From the IMG/VR virus record IMGVR_UViG_3300025728_000009, positions 1 through 64,000 of that record: a DNA stretch of 64,000 bases; one strand, written 5' to 3'. Within the stretch, counting starts at the first letter, position 1; every line of letters starts with the position of its first letter. Of this stretch, positions 1 to 57,749 are shown piece by piece. A program made the translations under genes and the position numbers. The notes under the pieces were generated by a model. The model searched no databases. It was not told the DNA's origin and saw only the letters and a program-made list of their open reading frames with translations. This DNA comes from a virus.

Positions 1-53
1 CCACTGCTTACCACTGCTTACCACTGCTTACCACTGCTTACCACTGCTTACCA
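1..53. repeat. Perfect 10-bp tandem array (CCACTGCTTA)x5 + CCA, running off the left edge
   Basis: Read directly at 1-53; overlaps the stop codon of ORF 38..256. Confidence 0.97.
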
Positions 54-256
54 ATTAGATCAACTGGCTTAGGACGCAGAGCTTTAAGAATTTCATCGTA
101 ACTAGGATTCTTGTATTCCGCCCTATCAGGCGTCTTCTTATCAAACACAAGCTTCAAATGATCTTTAATCATCAACCATTGGTTTTCAGAGATGGTGTCT
201 GTGTCAGATAGTTCTACGAAGCCTTGAAGCCAGTATGTGAAGCTTTCGGAATTCAT
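38..256 (-). CDS. Conserved phage hypothetical protein (F.YWLQGF.E...QW..IKDHL.LVF type)
   Basis: ORF with RBS (GAGG) and own sigma70-like promoter; last codons (GKQW*) come from the repeat array. Confidence 0.75.
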   Translation of the reverse strand: MNSESFTYWLQGFVELSDTDTISENQWLMIKDHLKLVFDKKTPDRAEYKNPSYDEILKALRPKPVDLIGKQW

Positions 257-554: not shown

Positions 555-758
555 TCAATCTTCTAAAGTCAAGTCTTCTTGAAAATATTTATTTAATTCT
601 TCAAGAATCTTAGTTCTGTAATCCCTATCACTCTCTAACCACTCAGTCATTTCTCTTTCTAAACCAATTAATTTTCCAAGATTATCTAGGTCAATTCCAG
701 TTGCTGTATATGGATTGCACTTCTCATATTCTCGCATCATTCTGTCATAGATGTTCAT
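555..758 (-). CDS. Small protein with baseplate DUF2612-like motif (ATG.DLD.LG..IG..R...ESD.DYR)
   Basis: Motif resemblance only; translationally coupled (ATGA overlap) to 755..2113. Confidence 0.45.
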   Translation of the reverse strand: MNIYDRMMREYEKCNPYTATGIDLDNLGKLIGLEREMTEWLESDRDYRTKILEELNKYFQEDLTLED

Positions 759-2113
759 TTCTTATCCACCTTGCAGAATGTTGTATCACCTAATACTGTT
801 TCCCAAGCTGAAAACATGGCCTCCCTTAGATCATCCTCAACAGAAGCTTTTACCAAACAACTGTCATGATAAGCCAAAACTGTATGTCCCTTAGCCCCCA
901 TTGCACCAACAATACGCATCATAATCTTACTGTCAATGTTTTGAAGAACAATGCCCGCATCAGAAAAGAAACGATCTTTGATGAAATCATTATGACTTTG
1001 TACAGCCTCTAGAACAGCACAATAGTCTGTTTCTCCAATCAAAGCATAGAAGTCTTGATCTTCAATTGCTTTAGAGCGGTCTTGTTTTACCTTGTTACCA
1101 AGTGTCCATGCTGCACTATTCTTGTCGTTAGAGTTCATGCCAATCAAGATAGCTAACTTAGCTAATTGACGAACAGGATTGTGTTTCTTACCTGTCTTCT
1201 TTTCCCATTCTTCTTTCAATCGACCATCAACCTTGAGAAATGATAGGTCTGCATCATAGGGAGAGAAGTCTTTACCCATCACATCATAAATATTAAATCC
1301 ATTTGTCTTATACATCAACTGGTAGCAGATAGATGGGTGGATTGCAGAATAGTCCAGCTCTACAGATGACTCACCATCAATCATGAGAGAAGATGCACGA
1401 ACATGCTGTGGGAGTAGTTGTACACCACCACCAAGAGTATACAGACGACCACCACTATCCATATCACCACTAAAGATACGACGATAGGATACATCAGCAA
1501 TAGGAACACCATCAAATGTAATCGAACTGCCTTGTAGAGTGTCATTCATATCTCGTACCTCATTCTTAATTTCTTTAAAACCTTTGTGTCCACGAGTAGG
1601 CATCTGTTCTTTAGTCTCCCGATCACGAATGATAGCTAAATCATTCTCTTCCAATTCTTTCCAAAGATTGTAGGAAGTATTAACATTCTCCCACATCTCT
1701 TTTGTACGCTTCCTGAAGATCATACAAGATGCAATAGCTTCATCAGGAACAAGCTTCCCTTTCTCCATCTTCCAAGACTTGACATATCCTTTGTAAAGGT
1801 CAATATACCCTTTCTCTTCTAGGAAATCAACAAGAGATTTAACCTTTCTGTAATTGATACCTTGTTTTGTCTTGCTATATGCATTCCTATCCAAGCTAAA
1901 GACAAATCCATTAGCTTTCTTCTTGATTGCACGAGCAGAGTTAGACACCCACCATCTCACTGCATCTTCCCACTTGTATTTAGTATGTTCCATCACATCA
2001 TCTACTATCTTCTTGTAGTATTTAGATTCATGGTAATAGATATAGCTTCTTACACACTGTAGGTTGACAGCATAGACATCATACTCTGTCATATTACTTA
2101 ATTCATAGATCAA
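755..2113 (-). CDS. Divergent family-A/T7-RNAP-superfamily polymerase (TV-Pol-like), 452 aa
   Basis: Ordered palm/finger motifs: GGRLY, ELDYSAIHP (motif A), RQLAK (motif B), LQNIDS, YHDS (motif C); no exonuclease domain; GGAG RBS. Confidence 0.7.
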   Translation of the reverse strand: MIYELSNMTEYDVYAVNLQCVRSYIYYHESKYYKKIVDDVMEHTKYKWEDAVRWWVSNSARAIKKKANGFVFSLDRNAYSKTKQGINYRKVKSLVDFLEEKGYIDLYKGYVKSWKMEKGKLVPDEAIASCMIFRKRTKEMWENVNTSYNLWKELEENDLAIIRDRETKEQMPTRGHKGFKEIKNEVRDMNDTLQGSSITFDGVPIADVSYRRIFSGDMDSGGRLYTLGGGVQLLPQHVRASSLMIDGESSVELDYSAIHPSICYQLMYKTNGFNIYDVMGKDFSPYDADLSFLKVDGRLKEEWEKKTGKKHNPVRQLAKLAILIGMNSNDKNSAAWTLGNKVKQDRSKAIEDQDFYALIGETDYCAVLEAVQSHNDFIKDRFFSDAGIVLQNIDSKIMMRIVGAMGAKGHTVLAYHDSCLVKASVEDDLREAMFSAWETVLGDTTFCKVDKK

Positions 2114-33091: not shown

Positions 33092-34309
33092 TCACGCAAG
33101 GTTGAAAATTTCTTTAATCTTAGGCTTTTCAAGCACCTCCAAGCTCATGCACTCAAACATCCCACCCTTAAACGGCACCAAAGGGTTGTAGTGAAACTCC
33201 CTGAATTCCTTGTGTAGTTCGGCTTCCATCTCTAAGACTGAAAGATGTTTGTCTTGCACTGTTGACAGGATTTCAACATCGTAGTACCTTCCTATCGACC
33301 ACATCCTTTCCCTCATATTGAAGGATCTACCAATCTTGATAAAAGATTCCTCTTTATTATACAAGTTTATGAGGTATAGATTGTCATCTTCGTCTGCACG
33401 ACCTTCGTATTCACCATACCCGTTATTTACGGCTGAGGATTTATATCTGCAAGACCCACCACAACCCCTACCTCTCAGGAAGTTGTTAATGGACGTGGAG
33501 TTTTCATGCCCTTCTGCACACAACCAATCAAACTTACTTGTCTGCCTGATATCATCAGTGTTGAAACCAATAAATGTAAAGCCTTGTGCAGTTACAAGGT
33601 TATTCATCTTAAGTTCATATTGTGCTGAAGTTAAAGGTGGATTATCTTTACATCGACAAGGTAGATTACCAGCCTTAAGGCTTGCATATGAGGCATTAAA
33701 AACACCATTGCAAAGACCAGCCTTTGTATACTCATCTTCTTTACAAATAGGACAGCTAACAAACCATCTTTCATACCTACCAGTGGAACCGGGCACAGGA
33801 TCTCTTTCAAACGTCGTACCGCTAACAAAGGAGCCTGTAGATAAAAACAAATCAATATAGTGTTCTATAGGTTTTACTTTGTTTTTAGATATGAGTCCAT
33901 CAAGACCAACACACCTTTTATTGTCATCTGAGCCGCCTAAGAATGAATTTATCCTCGGAAGAGTTACTACATCATTAGTTCTTAAGTCTACAGCCTTGAT
34001 CTTAGTATTAATCTTACCGTTATATTCCCCATCCCAACCTATGAATTTATAATCCCTCTTAATGCACTCCCGTATTACCAATATCTTATTTTGTTCTTCT
34101 GTTAGGTACGGAGTTCTGGCACAAAGACAAGAACATGATCCTTTACTTAGGCTGTGTGCATGAGAGGTAATTGATCCTAGTGGGAATAGTTCAGTATCTA
34201 AAGAGCACTTACTACAAGAGACAATCCACTTATCTTTCCCTATCTTACTAACTAATGTCATTATTGAATCTCTTACTTCAAACTGATCACCTTCATTGCG
34301 TACTGTCAT
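33092..34309 (-). CDS. Zn-ribbon-repeat protein with C-terminal GIY-YIG-like (T5orf172/MUG113) nuclease domain
   Basis: Two internal repeats W.VSC..C...L..G...C.C...LT..Q...F.G; C.EGH...GRGC; C-terminal LYLI...FIKIGRS...R...E.ELH...E. Confidence 0.75.
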   Translation of the reverse strand: MTVRNEGDQFEVRDSIMTLVSKIGKDKWIVSCSKCSLDTELFPLGSITSHAHSLSKGSCSCLCARTPYLTEEQNKILVIRECIKRDYKFIGWDGEYNGKINTKIKAVDLRTNDVVTLPRINSFLGGSDDNKRCVGLDGLISKNKVKPIEHYIDLFLSTGSFVSGTTFERDPVPGSTGRYERWFVSCPICKEDEYTKAGLCNGVFNASYASLKAGNLPCRCKDNPPLTSAQYELKMNNLVTAQGFTFIGFNTDDIRQTSKFDWLCAEGHENSTSINNFLRGRGCGGSCRYKSSAVNNGYGEYEGRADEDDNLYLINLYNKEESFIKIGRSFNMRERMWSIGRYYDVEILSTVQDKHLSVLEMEAELHKEFREFHYNPLVPFKGGMFECMSLEVLEKPKIKEIFNLA

Positions 34310-39311: not shown

Positions 39312-39953
39312 ATGGCTGAAGATTTAAGCGGAAGAAAATATAATCGTTGGACTATAATTAGCCTTGCAGAGCGGAAAGGAAATCGGGCATATTGGAATTG
39401 TATATGTGATTGTGGGAAAGAAAAAGTAGTCCGTGGGGATCAAATCAAAGATGGTCGCTCACAGTCTTGTGGTTGCCTCAGAGCTGAACGCTCCTACAGG
39501 ACACATGGAATGTGGAAGAGTAAGATTTACAGGGTTTGGGGCTCAATGGTTTCAAGAACTACAAATCCAAACGATCCAGCGTGGCCCTACTACGGTGGAA
39601 TTGGTTGTGGATTAGACCAAGAGGAATGGAAGCAATTTGAAAATTTCTACAGGGATATGGGAGAAAGCTATAAAGAAGGGTTGACTTTAGAACGAGAAGA
39701 TCCTAAACTTGGTTACTCAAAAGAGAACTGTGTTTGGGAAACATGGAAAGTTCAAAGTTTCAACAAGAAAATGGATAAACGTAATAAATCTGGACGTACT
39801 GGTGTTGTGCTTATTGAGGCTACTGGTAAATGGAAAGCACGTATAGGTTTTGAAGGTAAAGACATCAATTTAGGTTACTATGCAACCTTCGAAGAGGCTT
39901 GTGCTGCAAGAGCCGAAGGTGAGCTTAAATATTTTGGAAGAACAAAGGAGTAA
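39312..39953 (+). CDS. HNH-like homing endonuclease with AP2 domain
   Basis: W.C.CDCG, SCGC, YGG.G, W..FE.F..DMG, N.SG.TGV, LG.Y...EEA..AR. Confidence 0.85.
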   Translation: MAEDLSGRKYNRWTIISLAERKGNRAYWNCICDCGKEKVVRGDQIKDGRSQSCGCLRAERSYRTHGMWKSKIYRVWGSMVSRTTNPNDPAWPYYGGIGCGLDQEEWKQFENFYRDMGESYKEGLTLEREDPKLGYSKENCVWETWKVQSFNKKMDKRNKSGRTGVVLIEATGKWKARIGFEGKDINLGYYATFEEACAARAEGELKYFGRTKE

Positions 39954-39956
39954 AAA

Positions 39957-42395
39957 GTGGATATTACTTGGGACCGGGAAACAACAGGTCTTTTGAATCA
40001 AGAGGCTATCGATTACACCACCAGCCCATTCAAGCTGAAAGAGACTTTCAAGACTCATTGCACTGTTGTGGAAGAACATCAGACTGGTAAGATTATTGCC
40101 TTCTATGATGGTCCTGAATATACTCTTGATGGTCGCCGTTACGAAGAGGTGATTGAAGGGCAGACTTACATTCTTGAAAATTACCAACCGATTGAGTTTG
40201 AGAAACGATCTATTGCTGAGTTTAAGGATTACGTCCTAAACAACCCACTACATAAAGTGGTGGCTCACAACCAGATCAACTTTGACTTAATGGTTGGTAA
40301 GATTGAAGAAGATATGGACTTCACCATTGAACAAGATACTTGGTGTGGTAAGCCTGTATTGTTTGAGGATACACTTGTAATCAGTAAAGCGCTCAACCCA
40401 GATCGTCTTGGTGGTCACAGCTTGGATTCCTTGTCTGAGAAGGCTGGACTTCGTAAGTATTCGTTTCGTAAACACATGCATGAGTCTATTCGATTCAAGC
40501 ACTTTGCAGCGGACATGCTATTTTATTGCATCATCGACGTGCTGGCTAATACCAAAGTTTACAAGATGTTGGAAGTTGAGAAAGGTGATTGGGATTGGTC
40601 AGACGCTATTAGCCTTGAGAAGGCTGTTGCTGAGATTATCACTCGACAGGAACACCGAGGGTTTGACTTCAAGACAGAACGAGCTATTGAACTTGTTCGA
40701 GATTTGGATATCAAACTTGAGGCTTTGCGTAGTGAAGTAGAACCTGTGTTGCCGCCTAAGCCTTTGGCAAAGACACGAATGGACTTCTACACACCTAGTG
40801 AAAAGCAGTTCAAGAAGTCGGGCGAACTGAATGAAAACATTAAGAAGTTTGTAGCTAAACACGAAGGAACAATCAGCGAAGATAATGTTGCAACAATATT
40901 TGGTAAAGAATACTCTCTGCCAATGCCTGCTGTACCATTGTTGACAGAAGTTCCGTCTACTTTGAAAGACACGACTCACATTAAAGAGTGGTTGGTTTCT
41001 AAGTTTGGCTGGAATCCCTCAGCATGGAAAGAGCGGGATTTGACGTGTGATGCAAAGAAGAATCGTCTTACACAAGAAAAGTTTGAAGCTGCTGTAGATC
41101 GGTATGTTGACCAAACATTAGCAAGTCCTTTTTGCAAGTATCGTCTTGAACACCTTAACCTTAATAAGAACAATATTAAGGCAAAGTTATTGGCAAAAGG
41201 TTGTGCTAAAAGCTTCAAAGTTCTAACCAACCCCACACTGACGGTAGGACAGGAGAAAGAGATTTGCCCCGGACTTATTGCGCTAGAAAGTAGCTTTCCA
41301 CACGCAAGAAAGCTTGCTGACTTCCTTACTTATAGTCACCGCCGTAATAGCATTCTTGGTGGTGGTTATGATCCAGAAGAGGATGATGAGGAGTTTGAAA
41401 GCGGGTTTATGCCGAACGTGAGGGAAGATGGACGTATTCCAACACCAGCAGATACTTGCGGGGCTGGGACCAGCAGATTCAAGCATCGTTTAGTAGCCAA
41501 CATTCCTCGTAATTCCTCGCTTTATGGCGAAGAAATGCGTAGTTTGTTTGGTGTTGGTAAAGGATATGTACAACTTGGTTACGATTTCGACTCGTTAGAA
41601 GCAAAAATAGAAAGCTCGTATGTTTTTCGTTATAAGGGCGGACCTGAGTACGGTATCAGTCTCACAGCAGAGAAGCCGAATGACTGTCACTCTGTACTAG
41701 CACGGAGGATTACTGAGATTATCGGTAAGGAGTTTCCTCGTGGAAGTGCAAAATCTGTTAAATACGGTTGCAGTTACAACGCACAGGTTGCCCGAGTAGC
41801 TAAAATTGTTGGCTGTGATCTTGAAACAGCTCAAATCATCTTTGATGAATTTTGGACTTTGGCTAACCCTCTCAAAGAACTCAAAGATCGTATGCAACAA
41901 TATTGGGAAACAACAGGACAGAAGAAGTTCCTTCTTGGGATTGATAAGCGTAAACTTCCAATTCGCTCAAAAGGCAATGTGATCAACAGTGCCTTCCAGT
42001 CAGCAGGCGTAATTTGTGCAAAACGAGCGATGGTTATTCATGATCGCAAGCTTAAAGCCGAAGGAATGTCTGTAGATTTCTTTAAGGATGATTGGAAGAA
42101 CAAGAAATATTGCCAGCAAATGATTGCTTACCACGATGAGGCACAATTAGAGTTGACACGAGAGCTGGTTAAGTTTAAACTCTTTGACACAGAGAAAGAA
42201 GCGAAGGAATTTTCTGAAGAAGGAAAAATCTGGAGCGATGTTGGACATGCAAAAGACGGACGTTTCTTCCGTTCATGGTGTCGAGCAGGTGAACTTGCAG
42301 CAGAATCTGTAAAAGAAGCTGGACAATACTATAAATTGAACGTAGAATTGACAGCAGGCTATGTGATTGGAAGCGGATGGGATAATTGTCACTAA
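39957..42395 (+). CDS. Family A DNA polymerase with 3'-5' exonuclease
   Basis: DRETTG, AHN..FD, HSL exonuclease motifs; DFDSLE (A), R..AK...YG (B), YHDE (C). Confidence 0.93.
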   Translation: MDITWDRETTGLLNQEAIDYTTSPFKLKETFKTHCTVVEEHQTGKIIAFYDGPEYTLDGRRYEEVIEGQTYILENYQPIEFEKRSIAEFKDYVLNNPLHKVVAHNQINFDLMVGKIEEDMDFTIEQDTWCGKPVLFEDTLVISKALNPDRLGGHSLDSLSEKAGLRKYSFRKHMHESIRFKHFAADMLFYCIIDVLANTKVYKMLEVEKGDWDWSDAISLEKAVAEIITRQEHRGFDFKTERAIELVRDLDIKLEALRSEVEPVLPPKPLAKTRMDFYTPSEKQFKKSGELNENIKKFVAKHEGTISEDNVATIFGKEYSLPMPAVPLLTEVPSTLKDTTHIKEWLVSKFGWNPSAWKERDLTCDAKKNRLTQEKFEAAVDRYVDQTLASPFCKYRLEHLNLNKNNIKAKLLAKGCAKSFKVLTNPTLTVGQEKEICPGLIALESSFPHARKLADFLTYSHRRNSILGGGYDPEEDDEEFESGFMPNVREDGRIPTPADTCGAGTSRFKHRLVANIPRNSSLYGEEMRSLFGVGKGYVQLGYDFDSLEAKIESSYVFRYKGGPEYGISLTAEKPNDCHSVLARRITEIIGKEFPRGSAKSVKYGCSYNAQVARVAKIVGCDLETAQIIFDEFWTLANPLKELKDRMQQYWETTGQKKFLLGIDKRKLPIRSKGNVINSAFQSAGVICAKRAMVIHDRKLKAEGMSVDFFKDDWKNKKYCQQMIAYHDEAQLELTRELVKFKLFDTEKEAKEFSEEGKIWSDVGHAKDGRFFRSWCRAGELAAESVKEAGQYYKLNVELTAGYVIGSGWDNCH

Positions 42396-46648: not shown

Positions 46649-47242
46649 GTGATCCCATCACAAGCTGACATAGACAAACGTAAAAAGAACTTAGAAAAAC
46701 TCTTAAAGCAAATTGATAAAGAGACAGGGAAGTCAATTGAGTGTAAGATGCTTACTGTTGTTCGTGGCGCTATCCGTAAATCTTGGATGTCAAGTCCTAC
46801 AAAACTCTCTTATCTAGAGCTGGGCATTGAACCAGACATGGACGACACAAACCGTAGGAAGTGGAAATGCCAGTGCGAGATTTGCAAAGAATGGTTTAAG
46901 CTTGCTGATATTCAGATCGACCACATTGATGGGCATAATACTTTCACACAGAAGTCAGATTTTGAAAGTTATTTTGACAGCATCTTGATGGTAGGGTATG
47001 ATGGACTCCAGCGGCTTTGTATAGATTGCCATGCTGTGAAGACTTATGCTGACGCTCACAGCCTTACTTTCGAGCAAGCTGAGAAGGAGAAAGGTGTAAT
47101 TAAGATTATTAACCTTACAGCAGCAGCACAGAAGAAGTGGCTGAAAGATAAGGGTGTTAAACCGGGATCTAATGAAGAGATTAGACGTAATCAAATTCGT
47201 AATGTTTTAGAACAGGAGAAAGATAATGATCGATGTAATTAG
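46649..47242 (+). CDS. HNH endonuclease
   Basis: CEIC...QIDHI...LQRLC..CH..KT. Confidence 0.8.
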   Translation: MIPSQADIDKRKKNLEKLLKQIDKETGKSIECKMLTVVRGAIRKSWMSSPTKLSYLELGIEPDMDDTNRRKWKCQCEICKEWFKLADIQIDHIDGHNTFTQKSDFESYFDSILMVGYDGLQRLCIDCHAVKTYADAHSLTFEQAEKEKGVIKIINLTAAAQKKWLKDKGVKPGSNEEIRRNQIRNVLEQEKDNDRCN

Positions 47243-55769: not shown

Positions 55770-57749
55770 ATGGAATTCAAACGCTTCAGTTCACTAGAGA
55801 ATAGCTACCGTCAGAACCTCATTGACAAAGTTCAATATGAAGGTAAAGATGGTGGTCTGTGGATGGCTACCGAAAAGCTACACGGCTGCTTTCAGGATAA
55901 GACCAAAGTAACTCTACCTGATGGCAGTTATAAGACTATTCAAGAAATTGTAGAGTCCAAATACAGTGGTGAGGTTCTGGGTGTAGATAAAGAAGGCAAG
56001 CTTGTCCCAACCAAAGTTGTTAACTGGTATGAAAACGGGAATACAACTGAGTGGCTTAAAGTAACCTTCCAGACTTATGGTGGTAAGGGCGGTAACAGTC
56101 GTGCTGTAAAATGTACACCAAACCATAAGTTCTTTTCTCAAGGACAATATCTACCAATGTCGGAGTTGGTTGTTGGAGACTCTGTGGAGTACACCTATTC
56201 CGGTTGCTCTTTGAGTTTTATTCAAGAGCAAGTTCTCATTGGTAAGATGCTAGGAGATGGTTCTCTGACAAACTCCTCTGTGGCTTTTGGTCATAAAGAG
56301 TTGCACGAGGACTATACTGATTTTACCCTTAAATGTCTTGGTTCCTTGGCAGGTAAACGTCAGGCTGATACAATGTCGGGATATGGCACAACCATCAGCC
56401 GTGGTCGTAGTATCTCTACAGAAGAAATTGATAAGCTGTTTGAATCGTGGAGTAAGTCTGTTGGTCATGTGCCCAAACTCACTTTGACGCCAATTAGTCT
56501 TGCTTTCTGGTACTTGGATGATGGCAGTGTTTGCTTGAATGACAATCAGAAACCTCGTGCAAGCTTTGCTACCTGTGGTTTTACAAAAGAGTCTTGTCTT
56601 AACTTGAAAGCAAGCCTTGCAAATCTGGGTATTACTTCAGAAGTGAATGGCGAAGAGGGGCGTTTGAGGGTTACTTTGTCAGCAGACTCAACAGATTTGT
56701 TGTTCTCTTATATTTGCAACTTGGTTCCTGAATCTATGCAGTACAAGTTGCCCCCACAGTTTAGAATTCAAGGGTCTGGTGCAGGTTTTGTGGAACAAGC
56801 TACCCACGATTTCACATCTCGTAAATCTTATGCTGTTATTAAAAGTATTGAACAAGTCTGTGAAGATAAACAGCGGTACGATATCGAGACTGAAACTCAC
56901 AACTACTTTGCCAACAATCTGCACGTACATAATTGTAACTTTAGCTTCTGGTGTGATGGTAAGGAAGTAAAGTTTGCATCTCGTACACAGTTTGTTGATG
57001 GGACATTCTTTAATTGTCAAGCCGTTATGAATCAGTATTCCCAAGGCGTACTTGATGGATTCCCATACTTCGCTAAAGAAGGTCAGATACTGGTAATTTA
57101 TGGGGAGTTGTTTGGTGGTAACATTCAGAAAGAAGTAGAGTACGGAGAGAAAGACTTTAAAGCTTTCGATGTTGTAATTGACGGACAACCCGTTCAAAAA
57201 CAATCGGCAATTAATATTGCAGACTCTTGTGGTATTGAGTTTGTCCCTGTCATCCATACTGGTACATTAGCCGAGTGTTTAACTCTGTCAAACACGTTTA
57301 AGTCCACATTGACACCAGAGGGTTACAAAGAAGAGAACACGTCTGAAGGCTTGGTAATTGAGCCTGTAGAGCCTAATTGGTTTAACAATGGAAGTCGTAT
57401 CTACTTCAAAAATAAGACAGAAGGGTTTAGTGAGAAGAAACGTAAACCAAAAGAACATATTGTGTTTGAGTTGTCTGATGAAGAATCAGAGTTGATGAAT
57501 GAGCTTCTGACTTACAACACTATTCAACGTGTGTCTAATGTAATCAGCAAGATTGGTCAAGTAACCAATAAAGACTTTGGTAAGATTCTTGGCCTCACTA
57601 CACAAGACTTGCTTGAAGAGTTCACCAAGGAAACTGAACAAGATCCTAAGCAGATTGCTGAAAGTAATTGGAAATCTTTCCTGAAGCTGCTACAATCAGA
57701 AGTAGGTAAAGAGGTTCGTAGTCAATTTGTTGTGGCTTTGGAGGATTGA
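55770..57749 (+). CDS. RNA ligase 2 (Rnl2 family) containing an intein
   Basis: Exteins join as EKLHG|CNFS (motif I); GELFG, IQKEV.Y, AFD, EGLVI, KNK. Confidence 0.9.
   Translation: MEFKRFSSLENSYRQNLIDKVQYEGKDGGLWMATEKLHGCFQDKTKVTLPDGSYKTIQEIVESKYSGEVLGVDKEGKLVPTKVVNWYENGNTTEWLKVTFQTYGGKGGNSRAVKCTPNHKFFSQGQYLPMSELVVGDSVEYTYSGCSLSFIQEQVLIGKMLGDGSLTNSSVAFGHKELHEDYTDFTLKCLGSLAGKRQADTMSGYGTTISRGRSISTEEIDKLFESWSKSVGHVPKLTLTPISLAFWYLDDGSVCLNDNQKPRASFATCGFTKESCLNLKASLANLGITSEVNGEEGRLRVTLSADSTDLLFSYICNLVPESMQYKLPPQFRIQGSGAGFVEQATHDFTSRKSYAVIKSIEQVCEDKQRYDIETETHNYFANNLHVHNCNFSFWCDGKEVKFASRTQFVDGTFFNCQAVMNQYSQGVLDGFPYFAKEGQILVIYGELFGGNIQKEVEYGEKDFKAFDVVIDGQPVQKQSAINIADSCGIEFVPVIHTGTLAECLTLSNTFKSTLTPEGYKEENTSEGLVIEPVEPNWFNNGSRIYFKNKTEGFSEKKRKPKEHIVFELSDEESELMNELLTYNTIQRVSNVISKIGQVTNKDFGKILGLTTQDLLEEFTKETEQDPKQIAESNWKSFLKLLQSEVGKEVRSQFVVALED
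55887..56933 (+). mobile_element. 349-aa intein with LAGLIDADG homing endonuclease
   Basis: Starts CFQD, CTPNH block B, LIGKMLGDG and LAFWYLDDG, YDIET, ends VHN followed by extein Cys. Confidence 0.93.

Follow-up and report, generated by a model that had tools for sequence, protein, structure and literature searches.

The window analysed here is the stretch of 64,000 nucleotides at positions 1 to 64,000 of the IMG/VR virus record IMGVR_UViG_3300025728_000009, itself a complete virus record of 91,285 bp, and the subject of this study is a gene near its left end (755-2113; this gene, its parts and its leader all lie on the minus strand). By profile comparison, its 452-amino-acid product is a new member of the published divPolA2 family, present in one copy in this genome. 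As modelled, the enzyme would be an exonuclease-free, thumb-poor miniature polymerase of the family-A/T7 RNA polymerase (RNAP) fold, fused to a winged-helix-like domain.

The gene begins with a TTG codon at 2113 and ends with a stop codon at 755-757. Homologues can be aligned from residue 1 onwards; at the position of this TTG, two relatives have ATG. A Shine-Dalgarno sequence, AAGGAGA (2122-2128), is located 8 nt before the TTG and is kept in relatives. Upstream of the coding sequence stands a sigma-70-like promoter (2280-2306), composed of TTGACA (2306-2301), 15 nt and TATAGT (2285-2280), followed by a leader of about 170 nt; GGTTGACA in the promoter region is kept in 10 of 12 relatives, and the promoter is absent from the scanner listing because its 15-nt spacer is shorter than the canonical one.

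The leader contains a conserved single-copy core (2161-2251) with the blocks GAGAAAGTACCGAGTAG, AACCCTTATAAACCGTGGCCTGTAGAG and TACAATACATCTATCTACTAACACC, each found once in the 91-kb genome with no recurrence. Over 83 nt, this core has identities of 0.98, 0.90, 0.86 and 0.83 to four relatives, while the coding sequence (0.88, 0.79, 0.78 and 0.73 to the same relatives) and its third codon positions (0.69-0.51) both fall below it. A structured RNA leader was considered and rejected, as Rfam gave no match and RNAalifold no consensus pairs. The core may have a regulatory function as a leader, or it may be a site on the DNA that the enzyme uses for initiation or as an origin. A pyrimidine/A-rich tract, free of G in the mRNA strand, extends from 2127 to 2188; relatives have a similar C/T/A-rich tract of variable sequence at the leader, structure prediction gave no structure for it, and it is probably an unstructured translation leader.

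An earlier note on this DNA had read the gene as a second, compact polymerase of the PolA/T7-RNAP superfamily that would usually be annotated as hypothetical, and the annotations of homologues bear out the latter point, since the product is 'hypothetical' everywhere. The sole library match to the 452-residue protein is phrog_4756 ('unknown function'), over the full length and with E 8e-83; Pfam gave no match, PF00476 included, and PDB sequences gave none with this single query. The founding barbavirus gene, Barba8S gp036, is matched by hhalign at 99.9% (E 6.6e-34, 378 columns), and the profile match in MG592441.1 (25472-26704, E 8.2e-37) is the exemplar AUR84708.1. Searches gave 112 close homologues and, at the 50% identity level, 10,833 family representatives, of which 4,711 have E<=1e-30.

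The novelty that the earlier note implied did not hold, as a 2024 paper had already named the family divPolA2 (PMC11348598), and the broader TV-Pol group dates from 2008 (PMC2579912). Yutin, Tolstoy, Mutz, Wolf, Krupovic and Koonin (Virol J 21:200; PMC11348598) described divPolA2 in 110 barbaviruses and other phages, in one to three copies per genome, as a protein without exonuclease that is found beside a regular DNA polymerase (DNAP) and has an N-terminal domain without detectable similarity. Its folds matched both DNAP and the mitochondrial RNAP (mtRNAP) and N4 RNAP, and a repair DNAP or an RNA polymerase was suggested as its role (PMC11348598). A close phage relative of the present genome, IMGVR_UViG_3300032080_000003, encodes two divPolA2 proteins, paralogues that share 77% and 29% identity with the query.

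The five motifs on which the earlier note relied are all in place, DSGGRLY at residues 219-225, DYSAIHP at 254-260, RQLAK at 315-319, LQNIDS at 390-395 and YHDS at 415-418, and they coincide with the most conserved columns of the family; on sequence grounds the motif match is far beyond chance. In an alignment of 80 homologues reaching down to about 20% identity, only G222, R223, R239, D254, K319, H416 and D417 are invariant, and the residue counts given below refer to 252 phage or metagenome proteins and 44 bacterial-island proteins. The beta-hairpin G221-G-R223-L-Y225 (1439-1453), equivalent to PolA TGRLSS and T7 RNAP RGRVY, holds the invariant G222 and R223 together with Y225, kept in 243/252. 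Motif A, D254-Y-S-A-I-H259-P260 (1334-1354), combines the invariant catalytic Asp with a His at the steric-gate position, and this H259 is present in 246/252 phage or metagenome proteins and in 44/44 island proteins. Motif B, the O-helix R315-x3-K319-x3-L323-x3-N327 (1133-1171), keeps R315 in 247/252, K319 in 251/252 and N327 in 239/252, and the spacing of the R..K..F..Y motif suggests that N327 occupies the position of the O-helix Tyr of PolA and T7 RNAP. Between motifs B and C, the L390-Q391-N-I-D394-S395 block (929-943) is conserved at Q391 (234/252), D394 (244/252) and S395 (237/252); from the order of the motifs, Q391 may be the equivalent of the minor-groove Gln of PolA. Motif C, Y415-H416-D417-S418 (860-871), holds the invariant H416 and D417, with S418 in 227/252.

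When the family profile was compared with PDB sequences, only Taq Pol I matched (E 0.11). In that alignment GGRLY..QLLP..R..ELDYSAIH falls on TGRLSS..NLQNIP..R..LDYSQIE, and H259 stands opposite the steric-gate Glu. Together with the counts above, this extends to the whole family the Glu-to-His exchange that the earlier note had seen in one protein, and its second observation, HDS instead of HDE in motif C, is confirmed by the conservation of S418.

The predicted structure agrees with this placement. The AlphaFold2 model of the 452 residues has a predicted local distance difference test score (pLDDT) of 93.6 and a predicted template modelling score (pTM) of 0.88, and Foldseek returned 149 PDB matches at E<=1e-3, with the top ones all family-A DNAPs. 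In an independent all-against-all VIA comparison the Z scores were 13.6 for apPOL, 12.9 for Aquifex Pol I, 12.4 for yeast mtRNAP, 11.8 for Klenow, 11.4 for T7 RNAP, 8.2 for the N4 mini virion RNAP (mini-vRNAP) and 6.8 for N4 RNAP II. All of the top 20 matches are PolA or single-subunit RNAPs (Z 13.6-6.8, 220-255 residues aligned), and lower scores belong to unrelated folds. For this model, the DNAP and RNAP matches are effectively tied, and membership in the PolA/T7-RNAP superfamily, as first proposed from motifs, is borne out by Foldseek, VIA and the Taq alignment.

The palm and fingers core identified by Foldseek and VIA spans residues 211-452 (758-1483) and has a canonical layout in the model, with D254 at a strand end and H416-D417 in a beta-turn between strands 413-415 and 418-422. 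It is preceded by a linker or rudimentary thumb region (residues 151-210; 1484-1663), in which only short helices at 152-157 and 179-193 stand in the thumb position, and many polymerase structure alignments start at residues 152-160. A homologous thumb is absent from divPolA2 according to Yutin et al. (PMC11348598), and TV-Pols have a two-helix thumb according to Iyer et al. (PMC2579912). Models and fold searches confirm that there is no exonuclease domain, as the earlier note had stated.

The N-terminal domain (residues 1-150; 1664-2113) is winged-helix-like in its stand-alone model, which has a pLDDT of 94.6, and is a probable DNA-binding module. Nearly all of its top 50 VIA matches are winged-helix proteins (Nse3, CodY, CAP/FNR, MarR/SarA, ORC/Cdc6, Fur), and residues from about 40 to 150 look like a winged helix in the model; the claim is limited to 'winged-helix-like' because the Z scores are only 4.4-6.4 and Foldseek gave nothing significant, its best match being the winged helix-turn-helix of CodY (E 0.065). 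Pfam revealed no domain fusions in ten longer family members, and no fused forms were found among proteins of 1058-3020 residues, which is weak evidence.

The protein is very likely an active enzyme, as judged from alignment and model, because the metal-binding Asp pair, the O-helix Arg and Lys and the hairpin Arg show little or no variation across more than 10,000 representatives. A catalytically dead polymerase fold acting only as a DNA-binding regulator would suit the winged-helix-like domain and the conserved, operator-like leader beside the gene, but persistence of the same catalytic residues down to about 20% identity makes it highly improbable. The type of sugar in the product cannot be predicted, because both ribose-excluding residues of Pol I are replaced, unlike in CcPol, the polymerase of a mobile-element priming system considered below.

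The genome encodes a regular PolA, as the earlier note had said, with 812 amino acids (39957-42395, PF00476), within a T7-like replisome that consists of a gp4-type primase/helicase, this PolA, a gp2.5-like protein that binds single-stranded DNA (SSB), an exonuclease and a polymerase-exonuclease subunit. The DnaB/gp4-like primase/helicase matches phrog_239 (E 1e-123) and is located 35 kb from divPolA2; no replication initiator was recognised among the scanned open reading frames (ORFs). Barbaviruses carry a Toprim primase. These priming enzymes weaken the proposal that divPolA2 is a dedicated primase.

One role compatible with the closest folds, which are DNA polymerases, is that of an accessory primer-dependent DNAP that repairs DNA, fills gaps, bypasses lesions or carries out recombination-dependent synthesis and does not initiate; 'a DNAP involved in repair' is one of the options listed by Yutin et al. 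(PMC11348598), CcPol alone only extends primers, and the minor-groove-type residues R239 and Q391 are conserved. We consider this quite unlikely, given that both ribonucleotide-excluding residues of Pol I are replaced family-wide while CcPol keeps them, that a fused winged-helix domain, an early position at the head of a gene block and relatives in integrase islands are atypical of repair polymerases, and that this genome already encodes a full PolA as well as a polymerase-exonuclease subunit.

In this genome divPolA2 opens a leftward block of genes at a divergent junction, an arrangement that recurs in relatives. Among 41 viral loci of 24-96% identity, 40 have a strand switch directly upstream, at a median distance of 298 bp with a median of 0 genes in between, and 85% of divPolA2 loci, against 31% of other genes called alike, are at most two genes from a strand switch; the 41 loci are phylogenetically non-independent and their genes were called crudely, and the pattern is also seen among the most divergent copies. 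GC skew was rejected as evidence for an origin because it follows the strand blocks of transcription.

An early gene at the head of a transcription block is also what would be expected of the main rival explanation, a compact single-subunit RNA polymerase that is made early by host RNAP and then transcribes a subset of phage genes, like T7 RNAP or the small N4 RNAP II. The HDS form of motif C is that of T7 RNAP, the steric-gate Glu is absent, mtRNAP, T7 RNAP, N4 vRNAP and N4 RNAP II (Z 12.4, 11.4, 8.2 and 6.8) are matched about as well as DNAPs, and paralogues could provide different promoter specificities; the possibility was raised by Yutin et al. (PMC11348598). A T7-style promoter set was sought with exact k-mers (9-14 nt) and 60 oriented upstream regions of the 91-kb genome, and no dispersed, conserved, phage-specific promoter was obtained, although such tests could miss a few promoters with a weak consensus. 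The only enriched upstream words were the Shine-Dalgarno sequence and the sigma-70 -35 word TTGACA, the best upstream 8-mer occurred in 5/60 regions at scattered distances, and exact k-mers revealed a single tandem array at the record ends. Moreover, the O-helix Tyr position, as placed by motif spacing, is Asn in 239/252 proteins, 452 residues would appear to leave no room for T7-type promoter-recognition and specificity-loop elements, and sister proteins are found in small integrase islands whose cargo would need no private transcriptase. On balance, a transcriptase is unlikely.

These island relatives were found by scanning bacterial genomes, which gave 55 loci. When the neighbours of 47 island loci were clustered, at least 33 of these loci had a tyrosine integrase no more than 9 kb away and 13 had a resolvase, with no conserved helicase cluster and no other conserved replication gene at these loci. 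The polymerase and the integrase form the recurrent core, and the cargo, such as type I restriction-modification (R-M) genes (HsdR/HsdM), is variable. Ten small ORFs between island integrase and polymerase were considered as AlpA/Xis-type regulators and set aside, having no Pfam match. A Reinekea island protein matched the phage profile in hhalign at 99.8% (E 5e-30, 295 columns), and its best phage matches are the Barba genes. In a FastTree phylogeny (midpoint root, support about 90), the island-type half holds 36 of 38 island proteins and the query falls in the phage-type half, so that on this tree the phage proteins are sisters of the integrase-linked island proteins. Inside the phage-type clade are also the nearest 'bacterial' homologues, one on a Bacteroidota contig from a metagenome-assembled genome (MAG; 49%) and one on a Flavihumibacter MAG contig (33%), both ringed by many small ORFs; these are probably phage contigs binned into Bacteroidota MAGs and offer a weak hint at the host phylum.

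In their contexts and taxa, the island proteins fit the N-domain subset of TV-Pol as described by Iyer, Abhiman and Aravind in 2008, who read this subset as a mobile-element replication enzyme (PMC2579912). The tie between divPolA2 and TV-Pol that the island relatives provide at the level of alignment is new relative to the account of Yutin et al., and the link to TV-Pol-type proteins drawn in the earlier note is thus supported by the island sister group and the core motifs. The named TV-Pol of the Microcystis phage Ma-LMM01, a 506-residue ORF, is only distantly similar (hhalign 55%, E 1.2e-4, 81 columns) and shares GxRxY, R and D-x4-H.

The island context has been weighed for a further explanation, in which the enzyme would make a non-genomic nucleic acid, be it a decoy, a signal or a template-independent tail, for early host takeover or anti-defence, and its island relatives could be defence or conflict genes. 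Small early 'takeover'-type ORFs surround the gene in the window and in ICP1, Barba and Aeromonas phages, the island relatives are found among R-M genes, and CcPol-MP has terminal-transferase activity. Against these points, no PADLOC defence model matched, the recurrence of polymerase and integrase beside variable R-M genes is what a gene for mobility or replication would show, and the template-contacting residues are conserved. We regard this explanation as very unlikely.

Evidence of timing and position comes from the ICP1 homologue, ORF100, located at 56,043-57,710 in the delta-CRISPR reference. Its reads rise from 1-2 in uninfected cells to 13-33 thousand at 4 min and peak at 4-8 min. For the same phage, Barth et al. 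reported an early bidirectional (theta) replication coverage peak 'near the 60 kb position' in 1-kb bins, which puts this early-expressed gene a few kb from the theta origin. The proximity is suggestive, although it is seen in one phage. No literature on ICP1 gp100 was found. An abundant non-coding RNA of ICP1 was considered as linked to ORF100 and rejected, for it sits between gp139 and gp140, away from ORF100.

Taken together, these observations lead us to favour a site-specific initiating polymerase for replication, a reading that we hold with a confidence somewhat short of even. It is favoured because of the mobile-element sisters, the fused domain of DNA-binding type and the divergent junction with its conserved single-copy element, and also because of the ICP1 data, the CcPol-MP precedent and a T7-like replisome without a recognised initiator. 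Host RNA polymerase would transcribe divPolA2 early from the sigma-70-type promoter at the divergent junction, and the enzyme would then be guided by its winged-helix domain to one particular site on the DNA, which might be the conserved single-copy element beside its own gene. There the palm/fingers core would make a short nucleic-acid chain de novo, and the T7-like replisome (PolA, gp4-like primase/helicase and gp2.5-like SSB) would take over this chain and start theta replication. Such a role would parallel that of T7 RNAP transcripts at the T7 primary origin and that of TV-Pol/CcPol-type enzymes, proposed or shown, on integrative elements. That the protein is catalytically active, starts chains de novo, acts at a specific site and is linked to replication is what we infer, and an origin-specific initiating role is plausible.

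Several points weigh against an initiating role. With a primase/helicase in this phage and a Toprim primase in barbaviruses, a second priming enzyme is not obviously needed, and one to three paralogues per genome are awkward for a single-origin initiator. For the three ORFs downstream (555-758, 331-507 and 38-256), the only matches are PHROGs of unknown function, and no partner resembling MP or SSB was identified. A divergent junction with a conserved leader is equally expected for any tightly regulated early gene, Yutin et al. called the gene neighbourhood variable (PMC11348598), and the coincidence with the ICP1 origin concerns one phage, 1-kb bins and a distance of 2-4 kb. The literature holds no assay of any divPolA2 member, and no experimental or later paper naming the family was found.

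A bolder version of the initiator reading, rather unlikely in our estimate, would make divPolA2 a third, PolA-fold class of origin-specific initiators in thousands of phages and islands, in which the winged helix reads a site beside the enzyme's own gene (here 2161-2251), the thumb-less core, from which both ribose-excluding residues are gone, starts a primer de novo, of RNA or of mixed composition, and the replisome extends it. If true, this would be a stripped-down form of the origin role of T7 and mitochondrial RNAP, and an extant form intermediate between family-A DNA polymerases and RNA polymerases. More generally, divPolA2 is a very large family without a Pfam model, with a full polymerase active site and, at the positions of sugar selectivity, unusual residues. 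Its place is between the family-A DNAPs and the T7-type RNAPs, and its product and mode of initiation therefore bear on the divergence of RNA and DNA synthesis. If it does initiate replication, phages with T7-like replisomes and small integrative elements would have a new route to origin firing. Since the ICP1 homologue is early, near a mapped theta origin and in a genetically tractable phage, the question is directly testable.

Other features of the genome deserve mention. The first 127 bp of the window (1-127) recur unchanged as the last 127 bp of the record (91159-91285), and thus the assembly is either self-closing or terminally repeated over a short length. Within this overlap, the 10-bp unit CCACTGCTTA is repeated perfectly in tandem, in 5.3 copies, over 1-53, at the 3' end of the ORF at 38-256. 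Two free-standing HNH endonuclease genes are found on the plus strand in the replication module (39312-39953 and 46649-47242), one of them between primase/helicase and PolA. At 55770-57749, also on the plus strand, an Rnl2-type RNA ligase gene is split by an intein with a LAGLIDADG homing endonuclease (Pfam RNA_ligase, T4_Rnl2_C, Intein_splicing and LAGLIDADG_2). On the minus strand, 33092-34309 encodes a 405-residue protein with four stretches of CapR homology and a T5orf172 domain (phrog_681, 'endonuclease').

Among systems that could be compared by position, the primase of PICMI satellites belongs to a different family (DUF3987/DUF5906) and was set aside as a positional analogy only. In other Vibrio species, PLE-like satellites reportedly fill the replication-initiator position with either a RepA_N protein or one that has a 'DNA Pol I domain' (PMC9410903), a further example of an A-family polymerase domain in the place of an initiator.

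With Pol I enzymes (Klenow, Taq, T7 gp5, apPOL), the protein shares its best fold matches (Z 13.6-11), and Taq aligns motif for motif; it differs in having no 3'-5' exonuclease domain, an apparently reduced thumb and a similarity below Pfam detection, and in the replacement of the steric-gate Glu by His, of the O-helix Phe/Tyr by Leu/Asn and of HDE by HDS. The T7-type RNAPs (T7, mitochondrial, N4 vRNAP and N4 RNAP II) have in common with it the palm/fingers fold (Z 12.4-6.8) and the HDS form of motif C. Enzymes of this type transcribe and also supply primers at replication origins, and firing of the T7 primary origin uses T7 RNAP transcripts. Compared with them, the present protein reaches at most half their size, has no N-terminal promoter-binding domain and, by motif spacing, has Asn for the O-helix Tyr that they use (Y639 in T7), and this genome is without a dispersed promoter set.

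The sole assayed precedent for initiation by this fold is the CcPol-MP primase of SCCmec, in which an A-family core primes de novo (Bebel et al. 2020, PMC7581432; Rice 2023, PMC10061031); CcPol alone only extends primers, and CcPol-MP also has terminal-transferase activity (PMC7581432). Both systems would have an A-family core on a mobile element that acts in initiation, not in bulk replication. However, CcPol can be recognised as Pol I-like, has retained the residues that exclude ribonucleotides and accepts deoxynucleoside triphosphates only, whereas divPolA2 has His and Asn at these positions and no match to PF00476. CcPol also needs a separate OB-fold partner, MP, and has a helicase linkage; the present protein is predicted to carry a fused winged-helix-like domain and has no identified partner.

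With TV-Pol the likeness extends to a minimal PolA-like core with the hairpin Arg, the two Asp residues and RxxxK, no nuclease and an additional N-terminal domain. As in the N-domain subset, the island sisters adjoin lambda-type integrases, resolvases and R-M operons, and the taxa overlap (Reinekea, an alpha proteobacterium, Alteromonas and Rhodobacterales). The N-terminal domain of TV-Pol was predicted to be all-helical by Iyer et al., while that of the present protein is alpha+beta. The inference that TV-Pol is a primase rested largely on linkage to D5-type helicases (PMC2579912), and the D5-helicase fusion or linkage of the other TV-Pol subset is absent here and at the 47 island loci, a further point against the initiator reading. 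Finally, like the divPolA2 proteins of Yutin et al., the present one accompanies a regular DNAP, is free of exonuclease and has a globular N-terminal domain before the palm. In contrast to that account, the accompanying polymerase is a PolA with a T7-like replisome rather than PolB, there is a single copy, the N-terminal domain appears winged-helix-like at modest Z scores, and the gene is usually the head of a block at a divergent junction.

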